Shown here in pieces: positions 39,046 through 62,111 of a stretch of DNA of 64,000 nt. Below the pieces are notes generated by a model that did no database searches, was not told where the DNA came from, and was given only the letters and a program-made list of their open reading frames with translations. The stretch is taken from NCBI GenBank assembly GCA_041690595.1, contig JAWLHB010000017.1, positions 62,001 through 126,000 on the forward strand, written 5' to 3'. The position numbers and the translations under genes are program-made. Numbering within the stretch: the stretch's first letter is position 1; each line of letters begins with the position of its first letter. The stretch is from Lentisphaeria bacterium. GTDB lineage: Bacteria > Verrucomicrobiota > Lentisphaeria > JABSQK01 > JAWLHB01.

Positions 39046-40056
39046 ATGATGACTCCACGACAGATCTTTATGGCGGCGCTGAAGCGGGAACCTGTGCCTC
39101 GACCGGCGGTGGGTAGCGCCACGTCGATCGTGACCACGGATCTGATGGACGAGGTGGGCGTCGGCTTCCCGCGGGCACATCTGGAGCCGCGTGCAATGGC
39201 GGAGCTGGCGGCGGCAGGACATGAGCTGCTCGGCTATGACAACGTCATGCCGCTATTCAGTGTCTGGCATGAGTCGGCGGCACTTGGATGTGAGGTGGAT
39301 TGGGGAGATGCCGGGCGCATGCCGGATAGCAGCGGACGGGTCTTTGCGGAGATGAAATCGCCGCTGGAGGTGCCGGACGACTGGCTGGATCGCGCCCCCT
39401 GCCAGGTGCCGCTCCAGGCGCTGAGGTACCTGCGGCAGCGGTTTGACGATCAGGTGGCGGTTGTCGGAAAGGTATTTGGACCGTGGACGCTGGGCTATCA
39501 TCTCTACGGAGTTGAAGAGTTGCTGATGGCAACGCTGCTGTCGCCGGATGATGTGCGTCGTGCACTACGGGGGCTGATCGACATCACCGTGGCCTTTGGC
39601 AAGGCCCAACTTGCGGCCGGGGCGGATGCGCTGACGCTGGCGGATCACTGTACGCGTGACCTTTGTTCGCCGAACGCCTATCGAGACTTCCTGCTCCCCA
39701 TCCATACCGAATTGCAGGAGCGGCTGGACTGCCCACTCATCCTGCACATCTGCGGCGATACATCGGACCGGATACCGATGATCGCGCAGACGGGTATCGG
39801 GTGCTTTCACTATGATTCGAAGGTTCCGGCGCGGCGAGCGCGCGAGCTGGCACGAGAACGACTGAGCCTGATGGGCGGCACCAACAATCTGCAGGTGTTG
39901 CGCCGGGGCAATCGAGTGGAGATCGCCGCCGATGTAGCGGAGAAGCTGGAATGCGGGACGGATATCCTCGGGCCCGAGTGCGCGGTACCGCTGGATGCCC
40001 CTTGGCGTGGTTTGCGCCTGCTGGCGGAGTTGGGGAAAGGTATGGTCACACGCTGA
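39046..40056 (+). CDS. MtaA/CmuA (UroD superfamily) methylcobamide methyltransferase
   Basis: ESAALGCEVDWG, GPWTL; Zn ligands LHICG and GPEC; start re-placed to ATG 39046. Confidence 0.85.
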   Translation: MMTPRQIFMAALKREPVPRPAVGSATSIVTTDLMDEVGVGFPRAHLEPRAMAELAAAGHELLGYDNVMPLFSVWHESAALGCEVDWGDAGRMPDSSGRVFAEMKSPLEVPDDWLDRAPCQVPLQALRYLRQRFDDQVAVVGKVFGPWTLGYHLYGVEELLMATLLSPDDVRRALRGLIDITVAFGKAQLAAGADALTLADHCTRDLCSPNAYRDFLLPIHTELQERLDCPLILHICGDTSDRIPMIAQTGIGCFHYDSKVPARRARELARERLSLMGGTNNLQVLRRGNRVEIAADVAEKLECGTDILGPECAVPLDAPWRGLRLLAELGKGMVTR

Positions 40057-41173
40057 GCTTGGCGAGATCGCGCATGGTGAAGGCGGTTACGAAGCGGGAG
40101 CGCAGAGGCGTTCTCAGCATGGCATTGAGCAGCAGGTAGCGTAGCGTGGGCAGAGATCGGCGGCCCAGCCACATGTTGAAAGCTCCTCGCCGCCTGGCGA
40201 TCCAGGCCCGCCGGCGGGCAGATCTTTCCCACTCGGCAAGAGCCGTGGCGGACGGGTCTCGAAGAAGCGCCTGAACGAAGTCGTGGGCATTGATCCAGCC
40301 AAGGTTCATGCCCTGGCCGCCGATGGGACTGACGATGTGCGCTGCGTCTCCGAGGAGCACGACGCGCCCCTGGCGGAAATGTTCGGCAAAGCGTCCATGA
40401 GGTTGAAAGCTGCTGACCATGCGGACGCGGTCCGTTGCGGGGAGGTGACCACTTCGCGCGAGCACGCAATCGGCAACCTGGCGAGGGGTGGGTTGGGGAA
40501 TCCATGAGGCGGTCTTGGCAACGTAGCGACGCCAGCCACCGCCCAAGGGGAACGATTCGAGGAGGCCTGCCGTTCCCAGCCAGACCGCGGCATCCTTCTC
40601 GCCCGGGGCATTATCGGCGAAATCGCCCATGATATAGTAGTCCGGATAGTCGATGCCCTGAAAGGAGATGCCACAAAGGTCGCGGATGGTGCTGCGATTG
40701 CCATCGCAGGCCAGTAGCCAGTCGCAGGTAGCCTGTCGCTGACCTTCCGGGGAGTCCCAGCGGATCCGCACGGAGTCTGCCAGCAGCTCGCACGCAACCA
40801 AGCGGGAAGAATACTGGACATGGCCGGCACACTCGGCCAATGCGGCCGTGGTGTGGTGCTGGGGAATGAGGTAGATGCCCATATCGTCAGGAGACTCGAC
40901 CAGCGGCAGGGCGATCAGCGGCTTTCCCTGCCAGAATACGCGGGCACAACGGGTTTCCACTCCCCGACGCCACAGGTCATCGGCAACGCCAATGGCCCGC
41001 AGCAAGCCATGTGACGGGGGATGAATACCGATGGCGCGCGATTCCGCGGGAAGCTCAGGACGCTGTTCGAGCATGATAACACGACAGCCCGCCCGGCGCA
41101 GCAGCGCCGCAACGTACAGACCAACCGGCCCCGCCCCAACAATGGCAATGTTGATATGGAAGGAAGCTGACAT
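40046..41173 (-). CDS. FAD-dependent monooxygenase
   Basis: IVGAGPVG, ACDG.RS, LLGDAAH..SPIGGQGMNLG. Confidence 0.92.
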   Translation of the reverse strand: MSASFHINIAIVGAGPVGLYVAALLRRAGCRVIMLEQRPELPAESRAIGIHPPSHGLLRAIGVADDLWRRGVETRCARVFWQGKPLIALPLVESPDDMGIYLIPQHHTTAALAECAGHVQYSSRLVACELLADSVRIRWDSPEGQRQATCDWLLACDGNRSTIRDLCGISFQGIDYPDYYIMGDFADNAPGEKDAAVWLGTAGLLESFPLGGGWRRYVAKTASWIPQPTPRQVADCVLARSGHLPATDRVRMVSSFQPHGRFAEHFRQGRVVLLGDAAHIVSPIGGQGMNLGWINAHDFVQALLRDPSATALAEWERSARRRAWIARRRGAFNMWLGRRSLPTLRYLLLNAMLRTPLRSRFVTAFTMRDLAKLSV

Positions 41174-41872
41174 TCACCCCCCCACATGAATGGCTGCAAG
41201 ATGTCCGGGGAAGCGTGCGTCCACCTGCCAGCCAGCAGGCAGCTTGGCGGCGAGTTCAGCGGGTGTATAGGCGCGGCGCAGCGAGACCAGGCCATCGGCC
41301 ACAACAAAGGAACGACGAAAAAATGGCGTCGCAACGAGGGCAAAAGAGAGGTACGCCAGGTCGCTGCGCTTGAGGTCGTTGTGGATGGTGAGGTGACGGG
41401 CAAGGGAGGGTGCGGCCTCCGTCAATTGGCGTAGTTGTGGCGATTCGAGATGATGCAGAAGATGATTGCTGATGACGGCGTCGTAAGCAGTACCGGCCGC
41501 GATTGCGTCCTCAATGGTGGCGCAACTTGCCGTGAATGCGTCGGGCTGTGGGTGAGCGCGGAGAAAGTCGATCGCGCGTGGATCCGGATCGATGCCGACG
41601 ATCGTCAGGGCCAGACCGTCGCGCTGTGCCAGTCGGAGCAGGTGACGCGGAACGTCGCCACCGCCGCAGCCGATGTCGAGTATCCGCCAGGGCCGTTTCG
41701 CGCTGACCATGCGCGGGCGAAGCAGTTGACGATAGTGCCTCCCCCACCCTGCCACCAGGCGATTCACGACAACGAACTGCCGGTAGGTGCGCCAAAGCGC
41801 CTGGAGGTCGCAATCGTCGCGGTCCATCTCTTCGGTCGCGTGCGGTTCACGATGTCTAAGGAAGAGCGGCAT
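41174..41872 (-). CDS. Class I SAM-dependent methyltransferase (type III PKS-associated)
   Basis: ILDIGCGGGD, SNHLLHH, DGLVSLRRAYT; abuts the PKS gene. Confidence 0.9.
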   Translation of the reverse strand: MPLFLRHREPHATEEMDRDDCDLQALWRTYRQFVVVNRLVAGWGRHYRQLLRPRMVSAKRPWRILDIGCGGGDVPRHLLRLAQRDGLALTIVGIDPDPRAIDFLRAHPQPDAFTASCATIEDAIAAGTAYDAVISNHLLHHLESPQLRQLTEAAPSLARHLTIHNDLKRSDLAYLSFALVATPFFRRSFVVADGLVSLRRAYTPAELAAKLPAGWQVDARFPGHLAAIHVGG

Positions 41873-42949
41873 TCAGCAACTCTCCAGAAGGAGCCCCTGC
41901 AGGGTGATACCCGGGCCGAAGCCGAGGGAAATGAGGGGCTGACCGGGAGGCAACTTCCGCGCGGCCATCTTCCTGAGAACATGGAGAAGCGAGACGCTGC
42001 TCATATTGCCGTGATCGCGCAGGACCTGCCTGGAGGCGGCGAGGTGGGATTCATCGAGGTCAAGGACCTGCTTGAGAGCATCGAGAATGGCCGGACCGCC
42101 CGGATGGATGGCCCACGCCGTATCGGGAAGGAGGGGCCACCGCCAGCGCTCGAGAATGCTAGGTATGGAGGTGCCGGTGGCACCTGACAATACCTGCGGG
42201 ACCTGGCGGGAAAGGGTCATGGCGAAACCATGGTCGGTGATCGTCCATGTAATGTGACGTGGTGAATCCGGCAGGATGGTTGCCTGGCCACGACAAAGAC
42301 GGAAGAGGGCACCGCGTGGATCACTGGTGACGACCGCGGCGGCCCCGCCATCGGCAAAGAGCGCGGCGGACATGATGGCGTCCATCTCGGTTTGAGGCTG
42401 CAGATGCAGAGAACAAAGCTCGCCGGCGACAACGAGAACGACGGCACTGGGTTCGGCATCACAGGTCAAGCGTGCCAATTCGAGAGCGGGCAGCGCGGCA
42501 TAGCAGCCCATAAAGCCAAGATGAAAGCGTTGCACATCGGGGCCAAGGGCAAGATCGCACTGCACCCAGGCATCCGGTCCGGGTGCTTCAAAGCCCGTAC
42601 ACGAGACGGTAATCAGGTGAGTGACGGAGGCCGGCGCGATAGCTTTGGCGGCAAGCGCCTTGCGAGCTGCCGCAACAAAGAGCGCTCTTGCTTCACGAGC
42701 GTATAGCGCGTTGCGGGCACCGGTAGATTGAGCGAGGATGCCCGGAGAACCATTGAAGAAGAAGGAGCCGCCGGCGAAGTCTGGCAGAATGACATGCCGT
42801 TGAAGTATGTCGGCCTGGCGATGCATCTGCTGAACAAGTCGTCGCAGACGCGGGGATTCAACGCGAGTGGCGAGGCGCTCACATAACTCTTCCTGCGTGC
42901 AGGCAGTACCCGGGTTGATGGTCTCGATGGCATGTAGATAGGCTGGCAT
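41873..42949 (-). CDS. Type III polyketide synthase
   Basis: Catalytic triad motifs FMGCYA, AIHPGG and HGNMSS; also ALFADG and GFGPG. Confidence 0.95.
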   Translation of the reverse strand: MPAYLHAIETINPGTACTQEELCERLATRVESPRLRRLVQQMHRQADILQRHVILPDFAGGSFFFNGSPGILAQSTGARNALYAREARALFVAAARKALAAKAIAPASVTHLITVSCTGFEAPGPDAWVQCDLALGPDVQRFHLGFMGCYAALPALELARLTCDAEPSAVVLVVAGELCSLHLQPQTEMDAIMSAALFADGGAAAVVTSDPRGALFRLCRGQATILPDSPRHITWTITDHGFAMTLSRQVPQVLSGATGTSIPSILERWRWPLLPDTAWAIHPGGPAILDALKQVLDLDESHLAASRQVLRDHGNMSSVSLLHVLRKMAARKLPPGQPLISLGFGPGITLQGLLLESC

Positions 42950-43015
42950 TGCATACTATAGAAGCCTTCCGCCTCAGCGGGGCTAGAGACCGGGGAAATC
43001 TTTGCAAACCGTCAC

Positions 43016-43044
43016 TTGCAAGAGTCGGAGAGATAGGCTACCTT
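43016..43044 (+). promoter_or_regulatory. Putative sigma70 promoter of the TM1266-hydG unit
   Basis: TTGCAA-N17-TACCTT. Confidence 0.55.
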
Positions 43045-43050
43045 ATTCGT

Positions 43051-43227
43051 GAGCAATGTAGCGATACCTGCGGCAAGGGCCATGGTGGCCTGACCCAGAG
43101 GGAGCGAGCTGCACGGCAAGCGAGCGGAAGGAACCTAAGTTCTGCCCTGCTGGCAAGACGTGCACAGGATCTGGTCTCAGACCCCGGATCGTTCTCCTTC
43201 CAAGGTGGACGCCGGGGTTTTGCATTT
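43051..43227 (+). ncRNA. Structured 5' leader, candidate riboswitch/attenuator
   Basis: Nested stems GATACCTG/CAGGATC, GGCCA/TGGCC, TGCACG/CGTGCA, AGCGG/CTGCT and GGAAC/GTTCT, followed by a terminator and a competing hairpin. Confidence 0.55.
43179..43227 (+). terminator. Intrinsic terminator directly upstream of the TM1266-family gene
   Basis: ACCCCGG..CGTTC.CCTT-CC-AAGG.GGACG-CCGGGGT followed by TTTGCATTT. Confidence 0.7.
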
Positions 43228-43242
43228 ACGGTGGAGAGGGCC

Positions 43243-43488
43243 ATGGAGACGCGCATAGGAGTTGTATCCATTCTGATAACGGACAAGCACGTAGTCGCCA
43301 CGGTGAACCAGCTGTTGAGCGAATTCGGGGAGATCATCCTTGGACGAATCGGGGTACCCTACCGGGAGAAAGGACTGAACGTCATTGCGCTGATTGTGGA
43401 TGGAACGACGGACAAGGTGGGTGCCCTGACCGGGCGCCTGGGGGCTTTGGACGGGGTAACGACTCGCACTTCGCTTCTAACGAAATAA
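43243..43488 (+). CDS. TM1266-family iron-only hydrogenase system putative regulator (81 aa)
   Basis: METRIGVVSILI...VNQLLSEFGEIILGRIGVPYREKGLNVIALIVDG..ALTGRLG; RBS GGAGAGG; lies directly before hydG. Confidence 0.9.
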   Translation: METRIGVVSILITDKHVVATVNQLLSEFGEIILGRIGVPYREKGLNVIALIVDGTTDKVGALTGRLGALDGVTTRTSLLTK

Positions 43489-43502: not shown

Positions 43503-44936
43503 ATGAGCCGCATGGCTGATATGCAGCAGTTGAGCAAGGGCGCAGTGGATTTCATCGACGATGCGCGGTTGACGGCCTTGATAGACACCACGCAGCCCGA
43601 TGCCGAGCGGGTGCGGGCAATCCTGGCTAAAGCCTTGGAGAAGCAGCCGCTGAGCGTGGAAGAGACCGCGGTGTTGATCAGCGCAGACTCTGAGGAGTTG
43701 ACCGAGGAGATCTTCGCCGCGGCGCGGCAACTCAAGGAGCAGGTGTACGGCAACCGGATTGTGCTCTTTGCGCCGCTGTATGTCGGCAGCAGCTGCACGA
43801 ACGACTGTGTCTACTGCGCCTTCAAGCGTAGCAACAAGGATGCGATCCGGCGGACGTTGGATATGACGGAGCTGCACGAGCAGGTTCTGGCGCTCGAGGC
43901 GAAGGGGCACAAGCGGCTCATCCTGGTATGGGGAGAGCATCCACGCTATGATGCCGACTTCATGGCGGAATGTGTGCGCACGGTATATGCGACGAAGAGC
44001 CCCAATGGCAAGGGAGAGATACGACGCGTTAACATCAACGCGGCACCACTGGACGTGGAAGGTTTCCGTCAGGTCCACGCCGCGGGCATCGGGACGTACC
44101 AGATCTTTCAGGAGACGTACCACAAGGAGACCTATGCCAAGGTGCATCCACCCAAGGATCGCAAAGGCAACTACATGTGGCGCCTGGACGGATTGAGCCG
44201 CGCCATGGAAGCCGGCTGCGACGATGTTGGATTCGGCGCGTTGTTCGGGCTTTACGACTGGCGGTTCGAGGTCCTGGCCCTGGTGACGCATGCTCTGCAC
44301 TTTCAACAGAAGTATGGGGTAGGCCCCCACACCATCAGCTTCCCCCGGCTGCAGGCTGCCAGCGGCGTGAAGCTGGACGAGCGCTGGTTGGTAAATGACC
44401 ACGACTTCAAACGGATCATCGCGATCCTTCGCCTGGCGGTGCCGTATACGGGGCTGATCCTGACCGCGCGCGAGAAACCCAAGCTCAGGCGTGAAGTGAT
44501 GGCCTTTGGGGTATCGCAGATCGACGCGGGCAGTCGCATCGAGATTGGCGGCTACACGGAACACAACGAGATGCAGTCGCTCGAGCGTGAGCAATTCGAG
44601 TTGGGCGACGTGCGCTCGCTGGATGAGGTGATGCGTGAGTTGGTGGAAGATGGCTATATCCCGAGCTTCTGCACGGCCTGCTATCGGCTCGGACGCACAG
44701 GTGAACACTTCATGGAATTTGCCATTCCGGGCTTCATCAAGCGGCTCTGTACGCCAAACGCCTTGACCACGCTCTGCGAGTACCTCACCGATTACGGAAC
44801 CCCAGAGACCATCGCGGAAGGCGAACGACTGATTACGCAAGAGCTGGCGAAGATGGAGGAAGGTCCACGCAAGGAGGAACTGCAGAACCGCTTGACGCGG
44901 ATTCGCACCAGCGATGACCGCGATCTCTACTTCTGA
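43503..44936 (+). CDS. hydG: [FeFe]-hydrogenase H-cluster radical SAM maturase HydG
   Basis: APLY..SCTNDCVYC, YQIFQETY, PHTISFPR; C-terminal SFCTACYR...CTPNA. Confidence 0.96.
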   Translation: MSRMADMQQLSKGAVDFIDDARLTALIDTTQPDAERVRAILAKALEKQPLSVEETAVLISADSEELTEEIFAAARQLKEQVYGNRIVLFAPLYVGSSCTNDCVYCAFKRSNKDAIRRTLDMTELHEQVLALEAKGHKRLILVWGEHPRYDADFMAECVRTVYATKSPNGKGEIRRVNINAAPLDVEGFRQVHAAGIGTYQIFQETYHKETYAKVHPPKDRKGNYMWRLDGLSRAMEAGCDDVGFGALFGLYDWRFEVLALVTHALHFQQKYGVGPHTISFPRLQAASGVKLDERWLVNDHDFKRIIAILRLAVPYTGLILTAREKPKLRREVMAFGVSQIDAGSRIEIGGYTEHNEMQSLEREQFELGDVRSLDEVMRELVEDGYIPSFCTACYRLGRTGEHFMEFAIPGFIKRLCTPNALTTLCEYLTDYGTPETIAEGERLITQELAKMEEGPRKEELQNRLTRIRTSDDRDLYF

Positions 44937-57205: not shown

Positions 57206-57257
57206 GTGGCCGGCGGGACCTTCTCCGCCCTCCTACTGTCTCGCCGGCCACCTTTAT
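57206..57257 (+). terminator. Stem-loop between hydA and the sensory module
   Basis: GTGGCCGGCGGGAC...GTCTCGCCGGCCAC (14 bp including G-U) followed by CTTTATT. Confidence 0.55.
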
Positions 57258-57289
57258 TCACTTGTCCGAGGGCAAAACCCGAGCTGACC

Positions 57290-59314
57290 ATGACTCGCAT
57301 CGTAGCCCCACCCTTGATCACGACAATTGGCGAACGCTGCCGCGTCTGCTATACGTGCGTGCGTGAGTGTCCGGCCAAAGCGATACGGATCGAGGATGGA
57401 CGTGCGGATGTGATCAGCGATCGTTGCATCGGCTGTGCCAACTGCATCAAGGTGTGCGCGCGCAACGCCAAGCAGGCGCGCAGTTCGATACCGATCGTTG
57501 AGGAGTTACTGCAATCGGGAGTTAAGGTGGCGGCCATGCTGGCGCCGAGCTTCCCAGCGGAGTTCGAAGGGACGGATGCGAGGTTGGTGGCGGGGATGGT
57601 GCGGCGCCTGGGATTCGACCCGGTGTGTGAAGTGGCCTATGGCGCCGACCTGGTGGCGGCGGAATACAAGCGTTTGCGCCAGGAGCAACCGAACCGGCAG
57701 ATGATCGCGACCACCTGTCCCGCATTGGTGCGGTACGTGGAGAAGTACTATCCCGGTTTGGTGGATGCTCTGGCGCCAATCGTGTCACCGATGATCGCGA
57801 TGGCGCGAGTCCTGCACCATCTGCACGGGAGCGACCTGCGAATTGTCTTTATCGGGCCTTGCCTGGCCAAGAAACAGGAAGCGCGCGACCCGTTTGTGGA
57901 GGGCGAGGTGAATGGCTGCCTGACCTTTTCCGAGTTGCGAACGATGCTGAAGGAGCGAGGCATTGACAGCGGCAACACCGAGCTCGATGCCTTTGACCCG
58001 CCAATGCCCGGAATGGGGGTGCTTTTCCCAATGAGCCGGGGCATGCTGCAGGCCGCAGACATGCCGGAGGATCTGATCAATGGTGATGTAGTCGCGGCGG
58101 ATGGACGTGAGAGTTTCACGCAGGCGATCAAGGATTTCGAGTCTCATGCACTGGAGGCTGGCCTGCTGGAAGTGCTGTGCTGCAACGGCTGCATCATGGG
58201 TGCGGGAATGACGAGCGAAGCGCCACTGTTCCGTCGACGCGCCAGCGTGAGCCGATACGCGCGCCAGCGGTTGCGGGAGGTGGGGGAGAGGAGCGATCCA
58301 CCGGTGCCGGTGGACTTGTCTCGCAAGTATGAGGCGGACGATCAGAGGATCAATGTTCCGGCGGCGGACAGCCGGGTCGAGACGATTCTTCAGCGAATGG
58401 GCAAACAGCAGCCGGAAGACGAGCTGAACTGTGGCGCCTGTGGGTATGCTTCGTGCCGCGAGCACGCGGTGGCGATCGTGAAGGGGCTGGCGGAGAGCGA
58501 GATGTGCCTGCCATACACCATCGATCGCCTGAAGTGCACGATTCTGGATTTGAAACAGTCGAGCGATCAACTGGCCGGAGCGCAGGTGGCGTTGATGCAG
58601 GCGGAGCGGCTGGCGAGCATGGGGCAACTTGCGGCAGGCGTTGCGCATGAAGTGAACAATCCACTCGGGGTGGTGCTGCTGTATGCACACCTGCTGCTGG
58701 AGGATACGCCCGTGGATGCGCCGGGGCGTGCCGATCTACAGACGATCGTGGAAGAGGCGGATCGGTGCAAGAAGATCGTTTCGGGGCTGCTGAATTTCGC
58801 GCGCCGCAACAAACTGGCGTTACGCACGCAGAAACTGGCGGCGCTTATCGATCGATGCCTACATGTACTGCCGACGCCGGAGACCGTCAGGGTCGAGGCC
58901 ATCCACCATGCTCCAGAACTTGAAATCGCCCTCGATCCCGACCAGATTACGCAGGTACTCACCAATTTTGTCTCCAATGCAATAGGCGCCATGCCACACG
59001 GGGGAACCATCACCGTGAACACTGGCTTGGACGGGGAGATGGCTTACTTCGACGTGCAGGACACGGGTGAGGGAATTCCCGAGAAGCATCTCAGCAAGAT
59101 TTTCGAGCCCTTCTTCACGACCAAGGGGGTGAACAAGGGAACCGGGCTTGGCCTGGCAGTCATTTACGGCATCATCAAGATGCATCGCGGCAAGATCGAC
59201 GTGAAGTCGAATGCCGATCCGGCCCTGGGAGCGACCGGAACAACCTTCACCGTAAAACTTCCCTTAAATCTAAACGCAGAGGAAAGCGAAAGCGACTCGC
59301 AGTTCGACCTATGA
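57290..59314 (+). CDS. Sensory (group C-type) [FeFe]-hydrogenase domain fused to a histidine kinase
   Basis: 2x[4Fe-4S]; divergent H-cluster motifs [14 protein letters not shown] and [13 protein letters not shown]; FeS domain [10 protein letters not shown]; HisKA AHEVNNP; HATPase [14 protein letters not shown]. Confidence 0.9.
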
Positions 59315-59703
59315 AAGACCACGCAAAAATAATGATAGTCGATGACGATATCGACGTGATCGAGCAGCTCACGCTGATGCTGGAAGCAACCGGATACGAA
59401 GTAACGAGCGCGGAGGCCCAGTCGGAGGCGGAAAAGCTGCTCGAGAACTACGAACCGGATGTGGCGGTAGTGGATCTGATGATGGAGAACATGGACTCCG
59501 GCTTTGTGCTGGCGCACCACATCAAACGTCGCTACCCGAAAACAGGCGTAATCATGCTGACGGCGGTGGCGTCCGAGACGGGCTTGGGCTTCGATGTTAC
59601 CACAAACGGCGAACGTTCGTGGGTGAAAGCCGATGTCCTGCTGGACAAACCGGTGCGGCACGAGCAGTTGAGAGCGGAAATCGAGCGGCTACTTCAGGAC
59701 TGA
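59311..59703 (+). CDS. Stand-alone response regulator receiver protein
   Basis: IVDDD, VVDLMM, MLTA, DKP. Confidence 0.92.
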   Translation: MKDHAKIMIVDDDIDVIEQLTLMLEATGYEVTSAEAQSEAEKLLENYEPDVAVVDLMMENMDSGFVLAHHIKRRYPKTGVIMLTAVASETGLGFDVTTNGERSWVKADVLLDKPVRHEQLRAEIERLLQD

Positions 59704-59705
59704 TC

Positions 59706-60869
59706 ATGGCAGACCGGCTCCAGGTACTGGCAGTTGACGACGAACCCAAGATGCGGCTGGGCATGGCCCGGGCGCTGAGGGATTTCGTCGTGGAGTTGCC
59801 GGATTTCGGCCGCAGTGTGCGTTTTGAAGTCAGTACAGCCGAGACGGGCGAGCAAGCGCTCGCCCACATTGCCGCCAATCCGGTGGACATCCTTCTGCTC
59901 GACCACAAACTGCCGGGGATGCAGGGGCTGGAAGTTCTGCAGAAGGTGACCGAGGACAAACTGGACATGGTGGTGGTGATGGTAACGGCTTACGCATCTA
60001 TAGCCACGGCGGTGAGCGCCGGCAAGCAGGGAGCCTTCGATTTCCTGGCAAAGCCCTTTACCCCGAGCGAGTTGAAGGATACGATCGAGAAGGCGACAAC
60101 ACACTTGATCGTGCAACGGAAGGCGCGACAGCTGGAGCGGGAGCGCCACCAGATGCGCTATCAACTCATTTCCGTCGTCGCGCATGAGTTGAAGTCGCCG
60201 CTCAATGCGATCGACAGCTATCTGCAGCTGATCAACGATCCGGAGTTGAAGTTGAGCGCCGACAAGATCACGCACATCGTGGATCGTTCGCACGATCGGC
60301 TGGAAGGGATGCGCAAGCTGATTAATGATCTGCTGGATCTGACGCGAATCGAATCGGGGCAGAAGAAGCGCAATTTGGTGACGGTGGATCTGACGCAGGT
60401 GACGCAGGAGCCGGTGGAGGACGCCATCGAGCTTGGCCGCGAGCATGCCATCACGGTAGAGACCGAGATGCCGCCATCCCTGCTTATGGAAGCGGATGAG
60501 GGTGAGCTGCGGATCATTCTGAACAATCTGCTGTCGAATGCCGTGAAGTACAATCGTGATGGCGGCAAAGTAATACTGCGGGTTGCGGATCTGGGAGATC
60601 AGGTCAGCATCGCGGTGACGGATACGGGCATCGGCTTGACACAGGCTGAAGCAGATCGGCTGTTCGGGGAATTCGTACGAATCCGTAACAAGAAGACGCG
60701 GGGGATCAGCGGCTCGGGGCTGGGGTTGTCGATCCTGCAGAAGCTGGCGCATCTTTACAAGGGACGTGTGGATCTGCGGTCGGAACCCGATGTCGGCAGT
60801 ACCTTCACCGTCTACCTTCACAAGCACACACAAGTCGAACTGGCCGAGAGCATCGCCGCGGAAGACTGA
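59706..60869 (+). CDS. Hybrid receiver-histidine kinase
   Basis: AVDDE, LLDHKLP and AKPF, then AHELKSPL, NLLSNAVKY, DTGIG and GSGLGL; start ATG 59706. Confidence 0.92.
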   Translation: MADRLQVLAVDDEPKMRLGMARALRDFVVELPDFGRSVRFEVSTAETGEQALAHIAANPVDILLLDHKLPGMQGLEVLQKVTEDKLDMVVVMVTAYASIATAVSAGKQGAFDFLAKPFTPSELKDTIEKATTHLIVQRKARQLERERHQMRYQLISVVAHELKSPLNAIDSYLQLINDPELKLSADKITHIVDRSHDRLEGMRKLINDLLDLTRIESGQKKRNLVTVDLTQVTQEPVEDAIELGREHAITVETEMPPSLLMEADEGELRIILNNLLSNAVKYNRDGGKVILRVADLGDQVSIAVTDTGIGLTQAEADRLFGEFVRIRNKKTRGISGSGLGLSILQKLAHLYKGRVDLRSEPDVGSTFTVYLHKHTQVELAESIAAED

Positions 60870-60896: not shown

Positions 60897-62111
60897 ATGC
60901 AAACAACACCAAAGGGCCTGCGGCTGCATATCGGCATTTTTGGCCGGCGAAATGTCGGCAAATCATCGCTGATCAACGCCCTGACGCATCAGGATGTGGC
61001 CATCGTCTCGGAAGTTGCCGGAACGACGACGGATCCGGTGGAGAAGGCGATGGAGGTGCAACCGATCGGTCCGGTGCTGTTCGTGGATACCGCGGGTATC
61101 GACGACATCGGGGCGCTTGGTGAGGCGCGAGTGGCGAAGACGAAAAAGGCCGTCGAGCGGACGGACCTCGCCATTCTGGTGACGGACGAGTGGCTGCGCT
61201 ATGAAGACGAGCTGCTGACACTCTTCCGGGACAAGGGGCTCCCGGTCCTGATTGTGGCCAACAAGTCTGACCTCGGCCGCGTGGAACTGCCGGCATACGT
61301 TGAGAAAAGCTATCCCGTAAGTGCCACGACCGGCGAGGGTATGGTAGAGCTGCGGCTGGGGATCATTGAGTCCGTACCGGATGAGTTCATCAATCCGCCG
61401 AGCATCATTGGCGATCTGGTCGGGCCTGGCGATGTGGCGGTCCTGGTGGTACCGATCGACAAGGAGGCGCCCAAAGGGCGGCTGATCTTGCCGCAGGTGC
61501 AGACAATCCGGGATCTGCTGGACAACGATGCCGCGGCAATCGTGGTAAAGGAGCGGGAACTGGCGAGCGTACTCGGCCGTTTCGCGCAGCCGCCGGCGAT
61601 TGTGGTGACGGACAGCCAGGCCTTTCTGAAGGTGGCCGCGGATACGCCGCCGCGGATACCCATGACCAGCTTTTCGATACTTTTCGCACGGTACAAGGGA
61701 GATCTGGCAGAGATGGCCCGGGGGGCGGTGCAGATCGAGAGCTTGAAGCCGGGTGACCGGGTGCTGATCGCGGAATCGTGCACGCATCATCCCATCGCCG
61801 ACGACATTGGCCGCGTGAAGATTCCACGATGGCTGGAGCAATTCGTGGGCGGGAAGCTGGCGATCGACACCTTTGCGGGGCATGATTTTCCGGAGACGAT
61901 CGGAGAGTACAAGCTGATTATCCACTGCGGCGGCTGTGTCACCAATCGCCGGGAGATGCTCAGCCGCATCGAGAAGGCCCGGGCCGCGGGGGTGGCGATC
62001 ACCAATTACGGGCTCTGCATCGCCTACACGCTGGGAACGTTCGATCGGGCGCTGCGGCCGTTTCCGCATGCCTATGAGGTTTATCGCGAAGCCCTCGCCG
62101 CAGTGCAATGA
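60897..62111 (+). CDS. hydF: [FeFe]-hydrogenase maturation GTPase HydF
   Basis: GRRNVGKS, DTAG, NKSD, ESCTHH, HCGGC, TNYG. Confidence 0.97.
   Translation: MQTTPKGLRLHIGIFGRRNVGKSSLINALTHQDVAIVSEVAGTTTDPVEKAMEVQPIGPVLFVDTAGIDDIGALGEARVAKTKKAVERTDLAILVTDEWLRYEDELLTLFRDKGLPVLIVANKSDLGRVELPAYVEKSYPVSATTGEGMVELRLGIIESVPDEFINPPSIIGDLVGPGDVAVLVVPIDKEAPKGRLILPQVQTIRDLLDNDAAAIVVKERELASVLGRFAQPPAIVVTDSQAFLKVAADTPPRIPMTSFSILFARYKGDLAEMARGAVQIESLKPGDRVLIAESCTHHPIADDIGRVKIPRWLEQFVGGKLAIDTFAGHDFPETIGEYKLIIHCGGCVTNRREMLSRIEKARAAGVAITNYGLCIAYTLGTFDRALRPFPHAYEVYREALAAVQ

Follow-up and report, generated by a model that had tools for sequence, protein, structure and literature searches.

A conserved RNA motif of about 40 nt stands in the leader of the TM1266 and hydG genes of a Lentisphaeria bacterium, and comparison of sequences across phyla identifies this motif as a widespread leader-RNA family for [FeFe]-hydrogenase maturation genes that is uncatalogued in Rfam 15. 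The leader studied here is almost certainly a member of this TM1266-associated hyd family. The motif very probably acts as a cis-regulatory attenuator, one that here most likely represses, with an OFF state that would use the terminator behind it. Our reading as a whole, which we put forward tentatively, is of an uncatalogued OFF motif plus terminator whose effector would be TM1266 with a ligand, in autoregulation like that of PyrR. The TM1266–hydG pair is needed to build the iron–iron hydrogenase cofactor. TM1266 is a structural-genomics orphan: the structure of this 'putative regulator' was solved in 2006, yet no function is known for it. The conserved leader RNA, which accompanies TM1266, hydG and hydF in several phyla, offers a tangible way to approach that function.

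The leader occupies a divergent intergenic region (42950–43242) of the 64-kb window (the whole stretch of DNA analysed, 64,000 nucleotides), between a type III polyketide synthase gene and the TM1266 gene. Because the upstream gene is divergent, any plus-strand terminator in this region belongs to the TM1266–hydG leader. The features are as follows.

41873–42949, minus strand: type III polyketide synthase gene upstream of the TM1266 leader
43016–43044, plus strand: promoter-like TTGCAA (43016–21)-N17-TACCTT (43039–44), present in the sequence, a candidate promoter
43060–43109, plus strand: match to the family covariance model R1 (32.1 bits, E = 1.2e-4)
43067–43101, plus strand: core motif, an irregular hairpin (the ~40-nt family motif)
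43067–69 with 43099–101, plus strand: outer helix CCU/AGG
43072–73 with 43095–96, plus strand: GG/CC helix
43077–82 with 43086–91, plus strand: variable hairpin of the core motif
43105–43167, plus strand: long interrupted hairpin (TGCACG/CGTGCA arm; −25.8 kcal/mol, z −2.09)
43168–43190, plus strand: small alternative hairpin GAUCUGG/CCGGAUC, overlapping the terminator 5′ arm (from MFE folds of shortened transcripts)
43179–43228, plus strand: intrinsic-terminator-like hairpin (43179–43220, −24.5 kcal/mol) with tail UUUUGCAUUU
43233–43240, plus strand: Shine–Dalgarno-like GGAGAGGG, 3–10 nt 5′ of the ATG at 43243 (from reading the sequence)
43243–43488, plus strand: TM1266-like gene (81 aa; PF21699 100.6 bits, cut-off 27; TIGR03959 102.9 bits, cut-off 60.8)
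43503–44936, plus strand: hydG (477 aa; TIGR03955 488 bits, cut-off 312)

These family-profile scores, all above curated cut-offs, bear out the TM1266-like and HydG calls of the initial annotation, and the TM1266-like product also matches PDB 2nzc (E = 1.6e-12). Every string that the annotation listed lies where it was placed, including GATACCTG (43063–70), CAGGATC (43165–71), GGCCA/TGGCC and the long arm. The hexamers of its proposed promoter are likewise in position, but a sigma-70 consensus scan flags no promoter, which we put down to a weak −10 hexamer (TACCTT matches TATAAT at three of six positions). The self-complementary TTGCAA occurs twice in 43002–43021 of this divergent promoter region, 14 nt apart from start to start, and the doubled copy may be a protein-binding site for either of the divergent genes.

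Read from its 5′ end, the motif consists of (C)CUG[C/A], the first strand of a two-base-pair helix, NAG, a hairpin that may vary in both sequence and length, UGA(N), the second helix strand, and AAGG or GAGG (RAGG), which pairs back to the 5′ CCU. Model R1, built without the window, places only 43060–43109 below an E-value of 2 in the 64 kb (runner-up 11.5 bits, filters off), and this is also its sole match over the 8.1-Mb genome, where 150 of the 4,631 first-look candidates were scored. The match ends 134 nt before the TM1266 ATG, on the same strand. The MFE fold of 43064–43104 is the family fold, three nested helices with NAG and UGA as internal-loop strands; the R1 alignment of the window holds one non-standard pair in the 2-bp helix, and the thermodynamic register pairs all positions. 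Alone, the first hairpin folds with z −1.26 against shuffles; comparative sequence data, and not folding energy, are what support it. Two other identities were considered and rejected: a K-turn for the NAG/UGA loop, which lacks the 3-nt bulge and the GA behind it on the bulged strand that the K-turn consensus calls for, and leader-peptide attenuation, as a reading of the sequence gives ATG-TAG and a three-codon ORF inside the hairpin loop as the only ATG-initiated leader frames.

A search for the leader as DNA in 40 related genomes gave no match, and the source genome is alone in its family; TM1266 genes were therefore collected by protein family. Of 401 genomes sampled from the phylum, 138 carry PF21699 and 207 carry HydG. 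We inspected the DNA upstream of 90 TM1266 genes of the phylum and located the motif with covariance models, regular-expression patterns being too strict or too noisy. A MAFFT alignment of 26 window-type units (A1) had two registers, and the 14 sequences of one register form A2, the basis of R1. With the window excluded, 95.7% of A2 cells are paired, and none of 500 shuffles reaches its covariation score. A second model (R2), built from 25 matches with the window included, finds the motif just upstream of the TM1266 gene in 27 of the 90 loci. The larger alignment A7 holds 42 distinct sequences, with 95.3% of cells paired and five of ten pairs changed on both sides (52 cells); its covariation score reaches 0.359, where shuffles give 0.166 and none of 500 attains the observed value, and slid controls also fall below it. 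These values hold for an alignment fitted to the model, a fit that favours the structure. Its internal-loop nucleotides and an adjacent, nearly invariant G-U/G-C pair are conserved, and the hairpin is free to vary. The nearest relative, a metagenome locus (L152) whose TM1266 is 67% identical, repeats the motif almost letter for letter, with GGCAC/GUGCC in place of the window hairpin GGCCA/UGGCC, two pairs being swapped on both sides.

Covarying homologues upstream of TM1266/hydG orthologues are thus present, and the initial annotation's idea of an undescribed element also agrees with Rfam 15, whose families, at their gathering scores, match neither the window nor any of 20 related loci. Relaxing the threshold to E ≤ 10 over 42900–43300 yields chance-level scores, at most 15.3 bits where the gathering score is 50; this best match falls on the terminator hairpin, and no family scores even weakly on the motif itself. 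We found no description of the motif in the literature, including the available portions of PMC3543383, PMC8457756 and PMC9481103. PMC8457756 lists Clo1313_1572/1571 of Clostridium thermocellum as a TM1266-type regulator and hydG. Among named records, where TM1266 relatives were searched for with a single protein as query, R2 matches upstream of TM1266 in an Omnitrophota record (39.5 bits), a Spirochaetia record (32.1 bits), two Bacillota/Firmicutes MAGs (27.6 and 24.9 bits) and a Thermoanaerobacterales record (17.4 bits). One Bacillota leader (L240) shares an unusual 3′ end, CCCAGAGGGAG, with the window. The member found in the window is a single unit in a high-GC sequence, and its expression platform is specific to the lineage.

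A related arrangement is seen in low-GC leaders before TM1266 (L003–L046, of the same class, for example L011, L019 and L029), which appear to carry two related units in tandem and then a terminator; the units read CUGA-helix-GGG..CCC-helix-GAAGG, then UCGUUCUGA-...-AAGGCGG. By eye this tandem variant covers about two dozen loci, among which R2 detects only L004. Its MAFFT alignment (A4) is too inconsistent in register for a model, and the variant is described by eye. R2 misses such divergent variants, namely the low-GC tandem form plus L070 and L159, which were recognised by eye.

R2 gave 40 matches in 38 genomes, and most fall before one gene: 32 have a same-strand TM1266 gene starting no more than about 450 nt downstream. 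Another four immediately precede HydG and two immediately precede HydF, and in these genomes the TM1266 gene is elsewhere; one follows hydA without a same-strand gene behind it, and one is probably false. For four of the six hydG/hydF cases, the motif's 3′ AAGGA(GG) or GAGGA is the ribosome-binding site, 6–12 nt before the start codon. When genomes are grouped by TM1266 content (read by hand from two long tables), R2 matches occur in 38 of the 60 that hold TM1266, four of the 60 having only sub-threshold TM1266 matches and no RNA match, and in two of 86 HydG-holding genomes without TM1266, which come mostly from other families. Both of the latter matches score low (27.7 and 24.7 bits), and each falls within a frame free of stop codons, 592 and 823 aa in length. 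We also sampled 80 metagenome loci whose HydG is 63–78% identical to that of the window. Five of these hold TM1266, and R2 matches in three of the four with upstream DNA (L221 and L223 being identical); by eye the fourth has the variant that overlaps the ribosome-binding site. Among the 75 loci without TM1266 there is no R2 match, and by eye the motif appears in none of 20 hydG upstream regions from TM1266-less genomes, six of them from a genus (g23) in which most members have TM1266 and the leader.

The initial annotation offered a metabolite or the TM1266 protein as effector, and the finding of the motif only in genomes holding TM1266 leans towards the protein. The association is confounded: the gene next to the motif is in most cases TM1266, and the same distribution would be expected of a riboswitch dedicated to TM1266 operons. 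In another genus (g79, TM1266 not found), loci L144 and L145 carry a different hydG leader of about 90 nt, with a GACGUG/CACGUC hairpin and with CGGCAAGGAG as its end, at the ribosome-binding site; this may be either a remote variant of the motif or a separate element.

A terminator lies between motif and start codon in 21 of the 27 window-type leaders by a heuristic, and in three more by eye. In the window, the hairpin 43179–43220 plus its U-tract has z −4.37 (0 of 200 shuffles as good), which upholds the strong terminator that had been claimed just before the start codon; a strict consensus scan of the leader flags no promoter and no terminator, the latter because the stem is interrupted. 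For eight of the 21 terminator leaders the motif is complementary to the terminator 5′ arm above shuffles (p ≤ 0.05), often as CUGCGG against CCGCAG. This complementarity is not universal, and the window is not among the eight (motif strand against terminator 5′ arm, p = 0.85). Together with the versions that overlap the ribosome-binding site, it indicates that the folded or bound motif is the OFF state. Window segments upstream of the terminator show complementarity to its 5′ arm with z +0.4 to +1.6, not above shuffles, and we therefore infer the direction of the switch here from the family.

We propose that an effector would hold the irregular hairpin folded, its outer helix formed by the conserved 5′ CUG and the 3′ RAGG, and that the held motif would turn downstream expression off. 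In the window, shut-off would come about by allowing the strong terminator at 43179–43228 to form; in other genomes the motif's own 3′ AAGGAG is the ribosome-binding site that would be buried. As effector we favour TM1266 itself, the product of the gene that directly follows the leader, probably with a small ligand bound; its action on its own leader would be negative autoregulation of the PyrR kind.

Quite possibly the effector is indeed TM1266. Its predicted structure (pLDDT 80; TM-score 0.85–0.90 to 2nzc) is a ferredoxin-like β-α-β-β-α-β fold without a DNA-binding domain. In Foldseek searches, with the TM-score normalized to the query, NikR C-terminal domains score 0.78–0.85 and ACT domains and IlvN 0.62–0.70; other neighbours are PII-like domains and, more weakly, ribosomal protein S10/NusE. 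Residues R4, N22, R35, G37, P39, G64, G67 and K/R75 are conserved in 97–100% of 90 homologues. A single-sequence search for longer relatives returned none, whereas a profile search finds the domain, with its invariant residues kept, as the C-terminus of iron-chelate-type ABC ATPases (a cluster of 114 sequences on 102 contigs, one member being called as a free 81-aa protein) and also behind GNAT acetyltransferases; it is fused in front of HydE in three of 11 members of one cluster. Synergistaceae are among the carriers of the ABC-ATPase fusion. In three ABC-ATPase fusions (P0017, P0006 and P0014) the domain still starts with Met-Glu-Thr-Arg, and it may also be made from an internal start.

These fusions, as read from sequence, fit a small-molecule-sensing module that acts on proteins. 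That ABC ATPases carry the domain at their C-terminus speaks rather for a small-molecule sensor, and the fusions lower the chances of RNA binding by TM1266. The closest folds (NikR metal-binding, ACT and PII-like domains) weigh on the same side. The modelled fold is like the metal-binding C-terminal domain of NikR and, in its likeness, like ACT domains and small regulatory subunits such as IlvN; unlike NikR, TM1266 is without a ribbon-helix-helix domain, and a nickel site like that of NikR is absent, the translation in the window containing a single His and no Cys. It is possible, and we suggest it with some hesitation, that TM1266 founds a new class of RNA-binding attenuation proteins on an ACT/NikR-C-like fold. 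In the form carrying a metabolite from H-cluster assembly, TM1266 would bind the CUG-hairpin-AAGG motif and shut off hydG, hydE, hydF and linked importers. If TM1266 does bind RNA, [FeFe]-hydrogenase maturation would have a dedicated post-transcriptional regulon across many anaerobic phyla.

Possible too, and to our minds somewhat less likely, is a true riboswitch, in which the ~40-nt motif would bind, with no protein involved, a metal ion or small molecule that is connected with the assembly of the H-cluster. The ligand would perhaps be the same one that the TM1266 domain senses, closure of the outer helix would bring termination or hide the ribosome-binding site, and TM1266 would merely be the gene most often regulated. 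Several features of the RNA argue for this: conserved internal-loop nucleotides and a nearly invariant G-U/G-C pair beside a variable hairpin resemble small hairpin-type aptamers, a constant sensor with variable expression platforms (terminator or ribosome-site overlap) is typical of riboswitches, and the motif also stands before hydG or hydF, unlinked to TM1266. The fusions to ABC ATPases, GNAT and HydE point in the same direction, towards a sensor module working at the level of protein. The distribution argues the other way. No credible copy was found in the 86 HydG-holding genomes without TM1266, in the 75 close HydG loci without it or, by eye, in the 20 TM1266-less hydG upstream regions, and leader and TM1266 travel as a cassette before different operons. 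Small riboswitch classes formed of a hairpin with an internal loop are alike in their ~40-nt size, conserved internal-loop nucleotides, variable distal hairpin and variable platforms; they differ in that the motif has no Rfam match and is confined to TM1266-holding genomes in the samples examined. Whichever of the two, protein or ligand, is the effector, something new would be identified: a family of RNA-binding proteins in the first case, a class of riboswitch in the second, together with a signal molecule of hydrogenase maturation, and this is relevant to the engineering of hydrogen production, where maturase expression limits. An effector that is neither TM1266 nor a small molecule we consider unlikely.

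For TM1266 as effector, the nearest precedent is the Bacillus pyr operon, in which PyrR attenuation makes the bound leader hairpin an anti-antiterminator and the regulator gene is first in the repressed operon. The likeness lies in a regulator gene in first place, a terminator just before the coding region and sites before other genes of the pathway. The differences are that the PyrR element (RF00515) is among the Rfam models and has no match in the window, and that TM1266 is modelled as an 81-aa ACT/NikR-C-like domain, not a phosphoribosyltransferase fold. BglG/LicT, HutP and TRAP are likewise ligand-controlled proteins that read a short leader RNA element accompanied by a terminator, and bgl-type operons place the regulator gene directly behind the leader. 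Those proteins stabilize an antiterminator that overlaps the terminator or bind triplet repeats, whereas the motif before TM1266 lies upstream of and apart from the terminator, and the logic of the family points to repression.

We think it very improbable that the motif is a structured element without a sensing role, such as a hairpin that stabilizes hyd transcripts or takes part in their processing, or what is left of a terminator region at the 3′ end of hydA. Such an origin would suit f29-type genomes, where motif and terminator come right after hydA, and locus L121, where the pair follows hydA with no same-strand gene behind; it accords poorly with the strong conservation of unpaired nucleotides, with a motif 3′ end that is systematically the ribosome-binding site before hydG or hydF, and with the enriched complementarity to the terminator 5′ arm in the eight leaders. 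In the window, moreover, the divergent upstream gene means that the motif is not the 3′ element of another gene. At L121 (1501–1640), motif and terminator stand directly after the [FeFe]-hydrogenase gene, the genes behind them being convergent ones for pantothenate kinase and quinolinate phosphoribosyltransferase; the copy is either an orphan or serves as the 3′ end of hydA.

The initial annotation had drawn a larger object, a ~110-nt multi-stem domain (43063–43171) closed by GATACCTG/CAGGATC, the 3′ strand of which would toggle between this P1 and an antiterminator hairpin in classic P1/antiterminator/terminator geometry. We consider such an aptamer extremely improbable: when forced on the isolated segment its closing stem is nearly isoenergetic with the MFE (−41.4 against −41.9 kcal/mol), and the small hairpin is seen in truncated folds, but in the leader ensemble the closing stem has a pair probability of 0.001, it takes the CCUG that pairs with the 3′ RAGG in 42 homologues (and so competes with the conserved pairing of CCU 43067–69), L152 and L240, the closest leaders, have nothing that corresponds to the long arm, CAGGATC or the terminator sequence, and R1 finds no second motif unit in 43100–43240. 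What is conserved is instead the hairpin motif at 43067–43101. The antiterminator half of the proposal fares unevenly, as GAUCUGG/CCGGAUC does form in MFE folds of transcripts ending at 43200, 43206 or 43212 but is no better than chance against shuffles, nor does the geometry as a whole rise above chance in the window. If the transcript is cut at 43200 or 43206, its MFE fold also pairs the 3′ tail of the motif with the terminator 5′ arm, again no better than shuffles. The whole leader has z −1.13 (25 of 200 shuffles fold as well), and the long arm is matched by seven of 200. Comparison with the closest leaders indicates that the long arm is specific to this lineage; since long arm, CAGGATC and terminator are unconserved, we take the ~40-nt motif to be the sensor and the remainder to be a lineage-specific expression platform.

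Other genes of this genome touch on the same pathway or adjoin it. Upstream and divergent from TM1266–hydG, genes for a type III polyketide synthase, an SAM-dependent methyltransferase and an FAD monooxygenase stand in a row (40046–42949, minus strand), forming a small tailoring cluster. On another contig (C54, locus L251, 472–1818, minus strand) a second, weak TM1266-like ORF of 90 aa (PF21699 24.6 bits, below the cut-off of 27) is placed directly before HydE (TIGR03956 302.9 bits), behind a short leader without an R1 match and with no motif by eye. Within the window, a single protein (57206–59314, plus strand) joins an [FeFe]-hydrogenase large-subunit domain and Fe–S motifs to a histidine kinase; on the same strand it is followed by a response regulator (59311–59703), a hybrid kinase/receiver (59619–60869) and HydF (60897–62111), and the maturases here may serve a hydrogen-sensing kinase, not a metabolic hydrogenase.
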